64,000 nucleotides of DNA from Thermoanaerobaculia bacterium (GTDB lineage Bacteria; Acidobacteriota; Thermoanaerobaculia; UBA5066; Gp7-AA6): NCBI GenBank assembly GCA_041483715.1, contig JBGPGG010000002.1:7703-71702 (forward strand), written 5' to 3'. The translations under genes and the position numbers were made by a program. Each line of letters starts with the position of its first letter. Within the stretch, counting starts at the first letter, position 1. Under the pieces are notes generated by a model. The model was given only the letters and a program-made list of their open reading frames with translations, was not told the origin of the DNA and ran no database searches. Of this stretch, positions 59,295-64,000 are shown piece by piece.

Positions 59295-59945
59295 CTACTT
59301 GACGGAGAGATAGATCGTCACGCCATCTTTCTCGAGGACGACGCGGTTCTCCTCGATCTTCGTGAGGCTGAACCCCTCGATGAACGCGCCGACCGCGGCG
59401 ATGCGGTCGTTCAACAGGGCGCGCGGCTGGGTCTGTGACCACACGATGCCTCCGAGCTCGATCTTCGCGCCGCCCGGCAGCGTCACGGCACCCGCATAGG
59501 TTTTTCCGTTCGCGATCGCCTGGGGTGCGTGCGGCGCGGCGGAAGTCGGCGCCACTGCAGCTTCCGAGGCGGCTTCACTCCGAACCTCTCCCGCCGGGAC
59601 AGGAACGCGAGTCGGGCGGGCCTTCGCCGGCAGATGCGTCGGCGCAGCAGGCGCGGTCGGTTCCGCCGTCGGCGCAATGACCGCAGGAAGCGAGCGCCCC
59701 TCACCCCGCGCCTCTCCCGCCGGGAGAGGGAGGGAATCGGAGGATTCCCGGCGGTAGAGCCACACACCGGCCAGGGCGACGAGAGCGAGGGCCGCCGCGA
59801 TGCCAATCCACCGGACCACCGCGCGCCGCCGGGCGAGCCCCGGGTCCGGCAGGGGCGTGGGGATCCAGGGACGGCTCGTTGGTCTTGCGGCCTCCCCCTC
59901 TCCGGCCGCCTGGGCCCGCTTCAGCGCGTCGTCGATCAGGCTCAA
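59295..59945 (-). CDS. GspB/ExeB-like protein (single TM, Pro/Ala-rich linker, C-terminal T2SS-B-like domain)
   Basis: The TTG start overlaps the exeA-like stop (TTGA). There is a TM segment WIGIAAALALVALAGVWL. The C-terminus reads LGGIVWSQTQPRALLNDRIAAVGAFIEGFSLTKIEENRVVL. The family call is from memory. Confidence 0.6.
   Translation of the reverse strand: MSLIDDALKRAQAAGEGEAARPTSRPWIPTPLPDPGLARRRAVVRWIGIAAALALVALAGVWLYRRESSDSLPLPAGEARGEGRSLPAVIAPTAEPTAPAAPTHLPAKARPTRVPVPAGEVRSEAASEAAVAPTSAAPHAPQAIANGKTYAGAVTLPGGAKIELGGIVWSQTQPRALLNDRIAAVGAFIEGFSLTKIEENRVVLEKDGVTIYLSVK
59697..59733. repeat. Half copy of the palindromic element, inside the GspB-like coding region
   Basis: cccctcaccccgcgcctctcccgccgggagagggagg is translated as ...LPLPAGEARGEG... 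in the linker. Confidence 0.7.
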
Positions 59946-60754
59946 GCGACTTCCCCTTCCAGCTCCCGGATCGCCCGCCCCACCGCACGCGACTTGAGCT
60001 CGTACGTCCCGTTGACATAGCCGTACAGGAGCGCCTTGTCGCAGACGGCGTTGATGAGGCGGGGCACGCCCTGCGCGTAGCGGTGGACTCTCCGGATCGC
60101 CCACGGCGAGAAGCTGGGGCGCCCGTCGGCGCCGGCGACCCTCAGGCGGTGATGGATGTACCGCTCGGTCTCGAAGCGGTTGAGCGGCTTCAGGTGGTAC
60201 CGCACCGTGATCCGCTGGCGCAGCTGACGCAGCCCCCTCTGGTCGAGCTTCTCGCGCAGCTCGGGCTGTCCGATGAGGACGATCTGGAGGAGCTTGCACT
60301 GATCGGTCTCGAGGTTCGAGAGCAGGCGCACCTGCTCGAGCAGCTCCGGATCGAGGTCCTGCGCCTCGTCGATCAGAAGCACCACGTCGTTTCCGGCCTC
60401 GGCCTGCTCGAGGAGAAAGCGATTCAGGATCTCGAGGTACGCGGAGCGGTCGAGCCTGCGTGGCTCGAGGCCGAGCTCGAGCAGGATCGTCCGCATCATC
60501 TGCGTGGCCGTGATCAGCGGGTTCAGGATCAGGGCCGTCTTGCAGGACGGCCCGAGCTCCGAGAGGATCGCGCGGCACACGGTCGTCTTCCCCGCTCCGA
60601 CCTCGCCCGTGATCTGGATGAACCCCTTGCGTTCGCGGATGCCGAAGAGGACGTGGTTGAACGCCTCGCGGTGCTTGTCCGAGAAGAAGAGAAAGCGCGG
60701 GTCCGGAGTGATGTTGAAAGGGGCCTCTCGGAATCCGTAAAACTCGTTGTACAT
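59942..60754 (-). CDS. ExeA/GspA (MshM)-like AAA ATPase
   Basis: YGFREAPFNITPDPRFLF, GEVGAGKTT (Walker A) and LLIDEAQ (Walker B). Confidence 0.85.
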   Translation of the reverse strand: MYNEFYGFREAPFNITPDPRFLFFSDKHREAFNHVLFGIRERKGFIQITGEVGAGKTTVCRAILSELGPSCKTALILNPLITATQMMRTILLELGLEPRRLDRSAYLEILNRFLLEQAEAGNDVVLLIDEAQDLDPELLEQVRLLSNLETDQCKLLQIVLIGQPELREKLDQRGLRQLRQRITVRYHLKPLNRFETERYIHHRLRVAGADGRPSFSPWAIRRVHRYAQGVPRLINAVCDKALLYGYVNGTYELKSRAVGRAIRELEGEVA

Positions 60755-60788: not shown

Positions 60789-60820
60789 GACCCTCCCCTC
60801 CTTCTACGGAGGAGAGGGTC
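60789..60820. repeat. 13-bp-stem hairpin related to the GGAGAGGGTC element family
   Basis: GACCCTCCCCTCC-TTCTAC-GGAGGAGAGGGTC with one mismatch. It sits between the MGMT-gene stop and the exeA-like start, with no U-tract. Confidence 0.6.
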
Positions 60821-60841: not shown

Positions 60842-61651
60842 TTACGAGGCCAGCGCCACGGGAGGCCGGCAGTCGCCGCACGGGTGGAACCCCGCCGCGA
60901 CCGCTTCCCGCTCCGAGTGGAACCGCACCTTGTTCGAGAGCACCAGCGTCGCGATTCCGCCGCAGGTCGGATAGCAATAGTGCCTCGCCTTGTCGTTGCC
61001 GAGATAGCGGACGCCGGAGGCGGCCAGACGCTCGAGCAGCTCGGGCTGTGCGCCCTCCACCTCCAGGAGCGTGCGCTTGTTGTGCGGCCCGCCGAGCGAG
61101 TAGTTGCCGATGTGCCCGTCGCTGCGCACGACCCGGTGGCACGGGATGAGCAGCGGCACCGGGTTCTTCGCCAGCGCCGACCCCGCGGCGCGCACGGCGC
61201 CCGGGCGGCCGATCTCTTTGGCGATCCAGCTGTACGGCCGCACCTCGCCCGGCGGGATCTCGAGCGCCTTCATCAGCACGGCCCGCTCGAATTCGGAGAG
61301 CCCCCGCAGATCGAAGCGCAGTTCGCGCTGGCCCTTGCCCTTCCCATTGAGGTTCTCCACGAGCGCGCGGACGGCGGCCGGCGGCACGGATTCCTCGACC
61401 CGGATCTCGCGCCCGAAGTGCTTCTGGAAGCCGCGCTCGAACTCGGCCGCGGACTTCGCCCGCCGCACCATCGAGATCCCGGCCTTGCTGTGCGCAATGA
61501 AAACCGGGCCAACCGGCGAATCGAGCCGCCAATAGGTGTCGGCAAGACCCACCCTCCGCATCACCGCCGGCAGCAGCGTCGCGGGCGCCTTCTCGAGCGG
61601 CATTCCCCGCAGGGCCCGGGCGACCGTCAGAGCGTCTCTCATCGTCTTCAC
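60842..61651 (-). CDS. Methylated-DNA-protein-cysteine methyltransferase (MGMT) domain fused to a C-terminal Ada-type Cys4 zinc domain; no HTH
   Basis: LIPCHRVV (PCHR active site) is present. The C-terminus YCYPTCGG...NKVRFHSEREAVAAGFHPCGDCRP matches the Ada N-domain pattern FCRPSC...NVxF...EAxAAGFRPCKRCxP. GTG 61651 overlaps the sigma stop (GTGA), with ATG 61642 as an alternative start. Confidence 0.85.
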   Translation of the reverse strand: MKTMRDALTVARALRGMPLEKAPATLLPAVMRRVGLADTYWRLDSPVGPVFIAHSKAGISMVRRAKSAAEFERGFQKHFGREIRVEESVPPAAVRALVENLNGKGKGQRELRFDLRGLSEFERAVLMKALEIPPGEVRPYSWIAKEIGRPGAVRAAGSALAKNPVPLLIPCHRVVRSDGHIGNYSLGGPHNKRTLLEVEGAQPELLERLAASGVRYLGNDKARHYCYPTCGGIATLVLSNKVRFHSEREAVAAGFHPCGDCRPPVALAS

Positions 61652-62370
61652 TTTCTCACCCCCTCCCGGCGAGACGCCACGAGGGCCTCGCGCAGGGCGT
61701 TGACTCCCCGATGGACATTCGATTTCGCGGTCCCCACCGGCTGCTTCAGCACCTTTGCCACTTCCTCGAGGCGAAGGCCCTCCACGTAACGCAGGATCAG
61801 CGGCGCGCGGTAACGTTCCGGCAGCTGCGCCACGAGCGAGGCGATGTCGGCGCGCTTGCGCGATTGCTCGTAGCGCACGTCCGGCCGAAGCGCCTCGTCG
61901 TCGACCGCCTCCCACGCCGTCTGCCCGCTCTCCGAGAGCGGATGGTCGAGCGAGACGACCTTCACTCTCTTTCCGCGGAACCGGTTCCGCGCGACGTTCA
62001 GGGTGATCTGGTAGAGCCATGCCCGCAGAGCCATCGCGCGGACCCGCTCGGCCGGGTAGCTCCCGAGCGCGCGGTAGGCCCGCACGAAGGCGTCCTGCGC
62101 GACCTCCTCCGCGTCCTCGCGGCTCCCGGTCAGTCGCAGGGCAAAGGAGAAGAGGCGATCCTGGTACGTCGTCACGAGCTGCTCGAAGGACCCGTCGAGG
62201 TCCTCCGCCAGCCGGTTCCGAAGCGCCTCGTCCTGTGCCACGCCCAAGACCGACCCGCCTCTCTTCTGCTCCGGCTGTCCCATCACGAGCCGGAAACCGG
62301 ACGCCCCGCCCGGCGGCCACGGAACCTGCCCCTCGCTCGGGGCGCATCGGCTGATCATCATGCCCTCCAC
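61648..62370 (-). CDS. ECF-type RNA polymerase sigma-70 factor
   Basis: AEEVAQDAFVRAY and LRAWLYQITLNVARNRFR (region 2). LPERYRAPLILRYVEGLRLEEVAKVLKQPVGTAKSNVHRG (region 4). The true start may be an internal ATG, for example 62283. Confidence 0.85.
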   Translation of the reverse strand: MEGMMISRCAPSEGQVPWPPGGASGFRLVMGQPEQKRGGSVLGVAQDEALRNRLAEDLDGSFEQLVTTYQDRLFSFALRLTGSREDAEEVAQDAFVRAYRALGSYPAERVRAMALRAWLYQITLNVARNRFRGKRVKVVSLDHPLSESGQTAWEAVDDEALRPDVRYEQSRKRADIASLVAQLPERYRAPLILRYVEGLRLEEVAKVLKQPVGTAKSNVHRGVNALREALVASRREGVRK

Positions 62371-62423
62371 CTGGCTTCTGAAACACGGTTGGAGGGTGTT
62401 TGGTTGCAGTCTCGGGCCGGCCG

Positions 62424-63410
62424 CTAGACGCTCACTTTCAGGCGGGACCCGATCGAGGACGCAATGCCCTCGGCGTGGTGGCGGCTATTCTCGATGAAGA
62501 TCCGGCCGATCTCCCGGCCGCCGAGAATTGCCCCCGCCAGATAGAGGTTCGGGACGTTCGACTCGAGCGTCTCGAGATCGTGGGCCGGAACACGGGCATC
62601 GCCCTCGAGCCGGATCCCGCAGCGCTCGAAGAGCCCAAAATCGGGTTGATAGCCGATGAGCGGAAAGACCGCGTCCGCGCGAACGAACTCCTCGCCGCCG
62701 GGAGTGGCGACGCGGACGAGCTCGGGAAGGATCTCGGCAACGCGCGACCCAAAGAGCGCCCGGATCGCGCCCGCGGCGATGCGATTCTCGAGGTCGGGCT
62801 TGATCCAGTACTTGACCCGCTCCGAGAGTCCCTCGCCGCGGTGCACGAGCGTGACGCGCGCGCCGTGGCGGTAGAGATCGAGCGCGGCCTCCGCGGCGGA
62901 GTTCTTTCCGCCCACGACGACGACGTCGCGGCCGTGAAACGGGTAGCCGGAAACGTACCGCGCGTGGACATGCGGCAGATCCCCGCCGGCGACACCGAGC
63001 CGCCGCGGATTATGAAAGAAGCCGGTCGCGAGTATCGCCGCCGGGGCCTCGAAACGCATCGGTCCGGCGTGCCCCGCGGCATCGACCGCAAGTCCTCCGC
63101 CCGGAAGCGGCGTCACTCGCTCGATCGCGGTGTGCGCGACGACCTCCACGCCGAAGCGTTCGGCGACACCGCGGTAGTAGGCGAGCGCCTCGAGGCGAGT
63201 GGGGTGCGCCTCGGGCGTCGCGAAAGGGACGCCCGCGATGTCGAGGAGGTCCCGCGTCGAGAACCAGCGCATCTCCTCGGGGAAGTGGTAGATCGAGTCG
63301 AGGATCGAGCCGCGGTCGTAGCAGACCGCCGATATTCCGCGCTTGCCGAGCTCGATCGCGCAGGCGATGCCGGTCGGGCCCGCGCCGACGATGGCGACTG
63401 GATCGGTCAC
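62424..63410 (-). CDS. FAD/NAD(P)-dependent oxidoreductase, YpdA-like (thioredoxin-reductase fold)
   Basis: VAIVGAGPTGIACA and VVVVGGKNSAAEAA, the two dinucleotide-binding motifs. Confidence 0.8.
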   Translation of the reverse strand: MTDPVAIVGAGPTGIACAIELGKRGISAVCYDRGSILDSIYHFPEEMRWFSTRDLLDIAGVPFATPEAHPTRLEALAYYRGVAERFGVEVVAHTAIERVTPLPGGGLAVDAAGHAGPMRFEAPAAILATGFFHNPRRLGVAGGDLPHVHARYVSGYPFHGRDVVVVGGKNSAAEAALDLYRHGARVTLVHRGEGLSERVKYWIKPDLENRIAAGAIRALFGSRVAEILPELVRVATPGGEEFVRADAVFPLIGYQPDFGLFERCGIRLEGDARVPAHDLETLESNVPNLYLAGAILGGREIGRIFIENSRHHAEGIASSIGSRLKVSV

Positions 63411-63430: not shown

Positions 63431-64000
63431 CTAAAGCGCTTGGATCCTCACCGATCCCCCGCTCGTGCGCAGACGCAACGTGTTGCCGCCCTTGCCGAGC
63501 GTGCCCTGAAGGTTGCCGCGGGAGATCTCGCCGCGGACCTGGATCGACAGTTCCGTCTTGACCGAGTTGCCGGAAGCGTCGATCGCCAGATCCGCCGTGG
63601 AGTCGACCGCGACCTCGATGCCGCCGCCCGAGGTCTCGAGCGACCCTCCGTGGGAGTTGCCCTTCGCGAACGAGGCCTCGATCGAGCCGCCCGAGGTGTC
63701 GGCGTGGATCCGGCCGCCAGCGTCCACAATCCGGATTCCGCCGCCCGAGGTCTCGGCGTCGATGTCGCCGGTCACCTTCTGGAGCTCGATCGAACCGCCC
63801 GAGGACTCGGCGTGAACGGGGCCCTCGATCGATACGGCCTCGATGCCGCCGCCCGAAGTCTCCGCGCGCACCCGGCCCTTGATGTCCTTGAGATCGATCG
63901 ATCCTCCCGACGTGTCGGCGTCGAGGTCCCCGACGAGGTCGTTCACGGTGATGCTGCCGCCCGACGTGTCCAGCTTCGCCGGCAGACGCATCCCGGCGAC
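63431..64000 (-). CDS. DUF4097-like beta-repeat protein (frame open to the window edge; possibly 5'-partial)
   Basis: Periodic (D/E)TSGG(S/G)I repeats occur about every 20 aa: DTSGGSITV, DTSGGSIDL, ETSGGGIEA, ESSGGSIEL, ETSGGGIRI, DTSGGSIEA. Confidence 0.65.
   Translation of the reverse strand, partial: VAGMRLPAKLDTSGGSITVNDLVGDLDADTSGGSIDLKDIKGRVRAETSGGGIEAVSIEGPVHAESSGGSIELQKVTGDIDAETSGGGIRIVDAGGRIHADTSGGSIEASFAKGNSHGGSLETSGGGIEVAVDSTADLAIDASGNSVKTELSIQVRGEISRGNLQGTLGKGGNTLRLRTSGGSVRIQAL

Follow-up and report, generated by a model that had tools for sequence, protein, structure and literature searches.

Within a 64,000-nt stretch of a Thermoanaerobaculia bacterium (assembly GCA_041483715.1, contig JBGPGG010000002.1; hereafter the window), the gene of an extracytoplasmic function (ECF) sigma factor was followed directly by the gene of a 269-aa protein that joins a 6-O-methylguanine DNA methyltransferase (MGMT) to an Ada-type zinc domain. 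On balance, we favor the interpretation that the two products form a sigma/anti-sigma module sensing DNA alkylation, in which the anti-sigma factor is consumed by repair. That the pair is one functional alkylation-response module is very likely. It is quite likely that the 269-aa protein binds and inhibits the sigma factor; for alkylation as the signal that releases the sigma factor, the chances appear somewhat better than even.

The sigma product matched Sigma70_r2 and Sigma70_r4_2 in Pfam, without region 3, and scored 94.2 bits against the TIGR02937 sigma70-ECF model (cutoff 42.9). With sigma2 and sigma4 only and the match to the ECF model, it had the characters of an ECF (group 4) sigma-70 factor. 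Its start codon is likely the ATG at 62361 or that at 62358, behind a GGAGG Shine-Dalgarno sequence spaced 2–5 nt from these candidates. The TGA stop was shared with the GTG start of the MGMT/Ada-Zn gene in a GTGA overlap (61648–61651), as the initial annotation, made from the letters of the window, had described. The Thermoanaerobaculia sigmas, including that of the window, carried a conserved N-terminal extension of ~40 aa with an early Cys and the motif GFRLV(L/M)GQPEQ, which was absent from the Chloroflexota and Actinomycetota orthologues.

Relatives of the 269-aa protein numbered in the thousands, and the closest were found in Thermoanaerobaculia (Acidobacteriota) metagenome genomes, where they were annotated as MGMT throughout. 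A search of 1.84 billion representatives returned 205 matches at E < 1e-30, of which many spanned the full length. The initial annotation had named a lack of co-occurrence of the two genes across genomes as grounds for refutation, and the pairing proved to be almost without exception. Scanning 185,579 species genomes with a 10-sequence alignment gave 80 loci from the Acidobacteriota, several classes of Chloroflexota, Dormiibacterota, Entotheonella and single genomes labelled Verrucomicrobiia or Proteobacteria; 78 of these loci retained upstream DNA, and about six phyla were represented among them. For 77 of the 78, the gene immediately before the MGMT gene was on the same strand and encoded an orthologue of the window sigma (114–357 bits). 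The junction was an NTGA overlap (ATGA or GTGA) in 62 of these 77, another overlap in five and a gap of at most 30 nt in nine. Chance adjacency of the two genes was ruled out by this pairing. The same arrangement was present in the Actinomycetota, namely in a Pseudonocardiaceae genome, an Acidimicrobiales genome and the cultured Amycolatopsis nigrescens, whose sigma orthologues scored 105–107 bits against the window sigma and had the partner and the promoter in common with it.

The single exception was locus L040, in which a dehydrogenase gene stood upstream and the MGMT protein had a degenerate N-terminus. This degeneration in the absence of a sigma gene was counted in favor of an anti-sigma role for the N-terminus. 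A gene of the MerR family was located directly downstream in L040 (3803–5494), and this neighboring regulator may represent an alternative regulatory wiring.

The domain content that had been read from the window was confirmed. PF01035 covered residues 120–200 of the 269-aa protein (E 7e-28) and PF02805 (Ada_Zn_binding) residues 211–263 (28.4 bits against a gathering score of 23, E 1.6e-6), and both PCHRVV and YCYPTC...CGDCRP were read in the sequence. Mycobacterium tuberculosis OGT and C-Ada aligned to residues 40–202, and residues 224–265 aligned to positions 36–76 of N-Ada (1adn). In the alignment to solved structures, Cys226, Cys230, Cys258 and Cys261 fell on Cys38, Cys42, Cys69 and Cys72 of Ada. 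The AlphaFold2 (AF2) model had a mean predicted local distance difference test (pLDDT) of 93.3 and a predicted template-modelling score of 0.86. In Foldseek it matched C-Ada 1sfe with a template-modelling score of 0.81, and its tail superposed on the methylated N-Ada 1u8b with a root-mean-square deviation of 1.9 Å over 51 residues. A spurious Ada_Zn match was ruled out by the conservation of the Cys residues, the fold match to 1u8b and the register with the Ada ligands. The inverted domain order and the missing helix-turn-helix (HTH) reported earlier also stood, as Pfam gave no match to HTH, HTH_18 or AraC families in the 269-aa protein, which terminated six residues beyond the zinc domain.

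The residues expected of a working enzyme were strongly conserved. Among 40 diverse relatives, Y140, R154, N163, C171, H172, R173 and Y184 were invariant and E199 was conserved at 90% or more; of the zinc ligands, C226, C230 and C258 were invariant and C261 reached at least 90%. Of 150 representatives, 143 kept PCHR and the other seven were fragments. The protein thus displayed the PCHRV motif, Asn hinge, Tyr, Arg finger, Glu and two-lobe fold of an MGMT, together with the four Cys in register and the N-Ada fold of an Ada zinc domain. Because the catalytic residues and the Cys4 set are conserved and PCHR is nearly universal, the 269-aa protein is predicted to be a live suicide enzyme rather than a degenerate sensor.

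Evidence for an anti-sigma function came from the ~36 extra residues that precede the MGMT fold. In nine of the 40 diverse relatives, this region was longer by about 45 N-terminal residues and contained C...H-x3-C-x2-C. Such a C-x(n)-H-x3-C-x2-C domain, of the zinc anti-sigma (ZAS) type, was present in 12 of the 143 PCHR-bearing representatives, and these relatives were likewise coupled to a sigma gene. Pfam zf-HC2 was found above its gathering cutoff in six of the ZAS-type proteins and matched 11 of the 12 N-termini when these were taken in isolation. A profile of the ZAS-type N-termini recovered RsiW (5wuq) over its whole length with E 1.9e-6, and also DdvA, RslA and ChrR. The AF2 model of one ZAS-type relative showed helices at residues 4–16, 21–33, 35–54 and 62–70 ahead of the MGMT fold (pLDDT 95–98), which is the four-helix topology of an anti-sigma domain. 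When the window-type and ZAS-type N-termini were compared with hhalign, residues 8–36 of the former fell on positions 43–71 of the latter, a stretch that runs from the end of helix 3 through helix 4, with a probability of 88% and P 3e-6; an earlier and smaller test had given P 6e-4. In class I anti-sigma domains, helix 4 contacts sigma2.

Residues 1–36 of the window protein are thus probably the remnant of a class I anti-sigma domain, comprising the end of its helix 3 and its helix 4. The ZAS-type relatives and the hhalign match suggested that the family arose from genuine zinc anti-sigma factors, or has been in exchange with them, and that the window protein is a truncated version. The window protein itself did not match zf-HC2, and its residues 1–36 contained neither His nor Cys. 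A search of the PDB with the short window-type profile returned only noise, and Foldseek with both AF2 models listed MGMT and N-Ada structures and no anti-sigma structure in the top 50. Sequence profiles are thus the basis of the anti-sigma link. The initial annotation had assigned the anti-sigma role from the position of the gene, and it had overlooked the N-terminal helices. The role itself gained support from the anti-sigma-domain homology in the family; the assignment should rest on these helices and not on gene position alone.

A candidate promoter of the sigma operon provided a further line of evidence. The motif GCAACC-N16-GTGTT upstream of the sigma gene had one match in the window, with 0.13 expected, and just two further weak matches were found when one mismatch was allowed. 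In relatives both boxes were retained while the spacer sequence varied, giving the family consensus GCAACC-N14-16-G(T/G)GTT. When G(T/G)GTT was taken as the -10 box, the motif was located just upstream of the orthologous sigma gene in 60 of 76 eligible loci, and four more held it slightly outside the searched interval; elsewhere, about one unexplained match was found in 1.18 Mb. The predicted promoter of the window sigma is therefore of the autoregulated, bipartite kind with an AAC-containing -35 box that characterizes ECF sigma factors. In the Thermoanaerobaculia, the motif stood 20–23 nt ahead of the start codon that has the GGAGG. The distance to the sigma start was shorter, 1–12 nt, in A. 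nigrescens and many Chloroflexota, which suggested leaderless transcripts. Nine related loci of the Chloroflexota type (L036, L039, L043, L046, L049, L051, L059, L066, and L079) contained a second motif at a fixed position ~295 nt into the sigma reading frame. It could be an internal promoter for anti-sigma-only transcripts, or it could reflect coding conservation in one clade.

Extra copies of the motif outside the sigma genes point to putative regulon members (Table 1). They headed genes of Oxygenase-NA and an AlkA-like glycosylase in the class of the window itself, Oxygenase-NA again in A. nigrescens and an EamA transporter in two further loci. Repair genes were also part of sigma operons. 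The A. nigrescens operon had the order sigma, MGMT/Ada-Zn, a 149-aa protein and AlkB, and the operons of L087 and L084 included an AlkA-like glycosylase and Oxygenase-NA, respectively. A YedA-like EamA drug/metabolite exporter was the usual third gene in 40 Chloroflexota-type loci (L033–L083; e.g., L061 4785–5855). The regulon content in relatives thus mirrored ada-alkB and alkA. The 149-aa protein of A. nigrescens (L092 5370–5819), whose gene overlapped both the MGMT/Ada-Zn gene and alkB, matched no Pfam or NCBIfam model.

The C-terminal Ada domain, on which the initial annotation had built an Ada-like response rewired through a sigma factor, appeared to have a lesser part. The Cys4 tail was present in 79 of 143 representatives. 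Two relatives, P0157 and P0223, stopped right after the MGMT domain and had no Ada_Zn, but they kept the N-terminal helices, the 4-nt overlap with an orthologous sigma gene (131–151 bits) and the same promoter. Because such relatives keep the sigma, the overlap and the promoter, the switch cannot in general reside in the Ada zinc domain. The invariant unit consists of the N-terminal helices and the MGMT, and the zinc domain would be an accessory second input. The idea of an Ada-like response through a sigma factor was otherwise supported by the promoter that heads alkA-like and Oxygenase-NA genes and by the alkB gene in the A. nigrescens operon.

From these observations we infer binding to the sigma factor, its inhibition and its release on alkylation, and the following scheme is proposed. 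The 269-aa protein would work as a suicide methyltransferase in which Cys171 takes the alkyl group of O6-alkylguanine, and the zinc-bound Cys226 probably deals with methylphosphotriesters. With N-terminal helices derived from a class I anti-sigma domain, and made in step with the sigma factor through the overlapping stop and start codons, the protein would keep the sigma inactive. Every repair event would alkylate one molecule irreversibly, and the alkylated protein would drop the sigma, whether by changing conformation, by binding DNA more tightly or by being degraded. Free sigma would then use the GCAACC-N14-16-G(T/G)GTT promoter of its own operon and, in relatives, the promoters of alkylation-repair genes and of the exporter gene as well, until fresh unalkylated protein recaptured it and reset the system. 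The MGMT protein would in this case be a consumable anti-sigma factor: for each lesion repaired, one molecule would be alkylated and one sigma freed, and the activity of the sigma would therefore count lesions one for one. We give about even odds to this reading, which would make the system an Ada-independent adaptive response common to the Actinomycetota, Chloroflexota, Acidobacteriota and others.

Several points weighed against the alkylation-sensing sigma/anti-sigma module. The window protein has lost the HxxxCxxC zinc site and anti-sigma helices 1 and 2, so that only ~30 residues of the anti-sigma domain are left for the presumed binding to sigma. No second promoter copy and no repair gene were found within the 64 kb of the window, and when RNA evidence was sought for it, only sediment-metagenome DNA runs were available. 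A repair enzyme that is co-transcribed with a sigma factor could simply be a member of its regulon, and in the review that summarizes the classification of these factors, the group ECF122, which has MGMT as a neighbor, is listed as “without cognate anti-sigma factors” and with an unknown mechanism (PMC8999054). The MGMT/Ada-Zn protein might then be only a repair effector, with the sigma controlled transcriptionally or by an unlinked factor and the helices used otherwise. The intact catalytic residues would allow repair alone to account for the conservation of the gene, and AlkB and AlkA-like genes share the same operons. We regard this explanation as unlikely: those other repair neighbors vary by lineage, whereas the MGMT/Ada-Zn gene is invariant and translationally coupled, and a full zinc anti-sigma domain is fused to the enzyme in 12 representatives, with window-type N-termini homologous to part of it.

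Two further explanations accept a regulatory protein and alter its action or its signal; both appear very improbable. The methylated protein might be a positive partner that binds DNA or the sigma factor and assists the holoenzyme at the promoters of its targets. A comparable mode of activation is that of methylated Ada, which contacts region 4 of sigma70 and the C-terminal domain of the alpha subunit. The Ada-type zinc domain does fit the DNA-bound methylated N-Ada (1u8b), and the two proteins would be produced at a fixed stoichiometry. However, the N-terminal domain of relatives is a canonical inhibitory anti-sigma domain, the relatives without Ada_Zn retain the whole arrangement, and no conserved extra DNA site was seen beside the promoter, where spacer and flanks vary freely. 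Alternatively, the signal might not be damaged DNA; electrophiles or oxidants could act at the zinc thiolates or Cys171, as in RsrA-type proteins, or the sensor could respond to free alkylated bases or metabolites exported by EamA. About 40 Chloroflexota loci have the YedA-like exporter as their sole conserved operon partner, the upstream neighbor in the window is a YpdA-family putative bacillithiol disulfide reductase, and some relatives have a ZAS motif of the redox type. Yet the DNA-binding and base-flipping set of the MGMT (R154, Y140, and N163) is invariant, and DNA alkylation repair enzymes lie under the promoter in three lineages. An alkylation-sensing sigma/anti-sigma module was thus preferred.

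Table 1. Features of the window, with positions counted from its first letter, and extra copies of the promoter motif in related loci.
Feature	Position	Strand	Remarks
~216-aa gene	about 59295–59945	–	overlaps the AAA_22 gene; weak CdsD_C-like C-terminus
AAA_22 ATPase gene	59942–60754	–	downstream of the MGMT gene
Perfect 13-bp GC-rich hairpin	60789–60820	–	ACCCUCUCCUCC...GGAGGGGAGGGU; 22 nt past the MGMT stop codon
MGMT/Ada-Zn protein gene	60842–61651	–	269 aa; GTG start; directly downstream of the ECF sigma gene
Ada-type Cys4 zinc domain	60863–61021	–	residues 211–263; PF02805, alignment to 1adn/1u8b
Cys226 codon	60974–60976	–	equivalent of the Ada Cys38 methyl acceptor
Two-lobe O6-alkylguanine-DNA alkyltransferase	61052–61543	–	residues 37–200; PF01035, OGT alignment, C-Ada fold
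Active-site Cys171 codon	61139–61141	–
Proposed sigma-binding element	61544–61651	–	residues 1–36, two helices (2–16, 26–33); AF2 and hhalign
ECF sigma gene	61648–62361	–	237 aa counted from ATG 62361; open reading frame open from GTG 62370 (61648–62370)
Predicted ECF-type autoregulated promoter	62382–62407	–	GCAACC-N16-GTGTT; -35 GCAACC 62402–62407, -10 GTGTT 62382–62386
YpdA-family putative bacillithiol disulfide reductase gene	62424–63410	–	TIGR04018, 355 bits (cutoff 340); immediately upstream of the promoter
L022 (class of the window), extra motif			divergent; Oxygenase-NA (PF09859), then AlkA_N/HhH-GPD glycosylase
L092 (A. nigrescens), second perfect motif copy			Oxygenase-NA; two matches in 0/200 shuffles
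L025 and L028, extra motif			divergent; EamA transporter

Neighboring gene families were defined by strict clustering of open reading frames and Pfam checks. The YpdA-family reductase was syntenic with the sigma gene in 16 Thermoanaerobaculia loci and not outside this class, and the AAA_22 gene and the ~216-aa gene that overlaps it were conserved as a pair in close relatives only. Scans of the window for sigma-70 promoters and consensus terminators gave nothing relevant, and the 13-bp hairpin was not called by the terminator scan. This hairpin had a folding energy of -42.7 kcal/mol (z -2.5), no U-tract and a 3′ arm that resembled a Shine-Dalgarno sequence. It may mark the operon end as a non-canonical terminator, or it may be a translational element for the next gene. 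The AAA_22 gene and the gene after it were judged unlikely to be operon members, given their synteny only within Thermoanaerobaculia and the hairpin that separates them from the MGMT gene. Since synteny of the flanks was limited to this class and the hairpin follows MGMT, the local operon appears to consist of the sigma and MGMT genes only. Further upstream (63431–63991, minus strand), a 186-aa open reading frame of repeated TSGGSI/ETSGGGI units had no Pfam match and looked like a repetitive beta-strand protein.

To our knowledge, nearly all that is understood of the adaptive response to alkylation comes from the AraC-type activator Ada, and the routes of anti-sigma inactivation known to us are proteolysis, partner switching and redox chemistry. 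If the proposed mechanism is true, many phyla of soil and sediment would answer alkylation with a sigma/anti-sigma pair, and the MGMT protein would be the first anti-sigma factor to be inactivated, irreversibly and stoichiometrically, by a group that it takes over covalently from damaged DNA. An ECF group listed as having no anti-sigma factor and an unknown mechanism would then acquire its mechanism, its promoter and its regulon. It would also follow that O6-benzylguanine should trip the switch without DNA damage. The proposal is directly testable, since the operon also exists in the cultured actinomycete A. nigrescens, where it includes alkB and the promoter occurs a second time.

Compared with Escherichia coli Ada and the split AdaA/AdaB proteins of Bacillus and Mycobacterium, the 269-aa protein has the same Cys4 zinc domain and the same C-terminal-type MGMT with PCHRV. 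As with Ada, the regulon in relatives includes alkA-like and alkB genes, and the gene of the sensor is predicted to be autoregulated. In contrast to Ada, there is no AraC-type HTH, and the MGMT comes first and the zinc domain second. No HTH follows the zinc domain, and the protein is therefore not an orthologue of Ada or AdaA. Where Ada acts on Ada boxes, the output here is a dedicated ECF sigma factor that has a promoter of its own; the sensor is proposed to stop inhibiting rather than to turn into an activator, and some sigma-coupled relatives do without the zinc domain.

The neighborhood as such was already known. MGMT was given as a conserved neighbor of ECF122 sigmas in the 2021 reclassification (Casas-Pastor et al., summarized in PMC8999054), and the reference members of this group include WP_057211282.1. 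The module resembles ECF122 by neighborhood; the example in the review is actinobacterial, and the module was found here in Actinomycetota too. The review's text on ECF122 mentions neither anti-sigma homology nor the Ada zinc domain, the promoter or a repair regulon (PMC8999054). Our literature search returned no experimental study of the sigma-MGMT pair.

Close parallels are also offered by the class I and ZAS anti-sigma factors, such as RsiW-SigW (5wuq), RslA-SigL (3hug), ChrR-SigE (2q1z) and RsrA-SigR. As in these systems, the gene lies directly downstream of an ECF sigma gene and is translationally coupled to it, and the relatives of the 269-aa protein have a C...HxxxCxxC four-helix domain that matches the solved structures in sequence. 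The switch of RsrA is thiolate chemistry too. The sensor differs, being a cytoplasmic suicide enzyme of DNA repair in place of a membrane, periplasmic or redox module, and of the anti-sigma domain the window protein keeps just the terminal ~30 residues, which contain no zinc ligands. The protein would function as a hybrid of an Ada-type and a ZAS-type regulator. As far as the ECF122 account goes, the pairing has so far been noted superficially in the literature, and what is new would be the sensor of an ECF sigma/anti-sigma pair and the chemistry by which the anti-sigma factor is inactivated.

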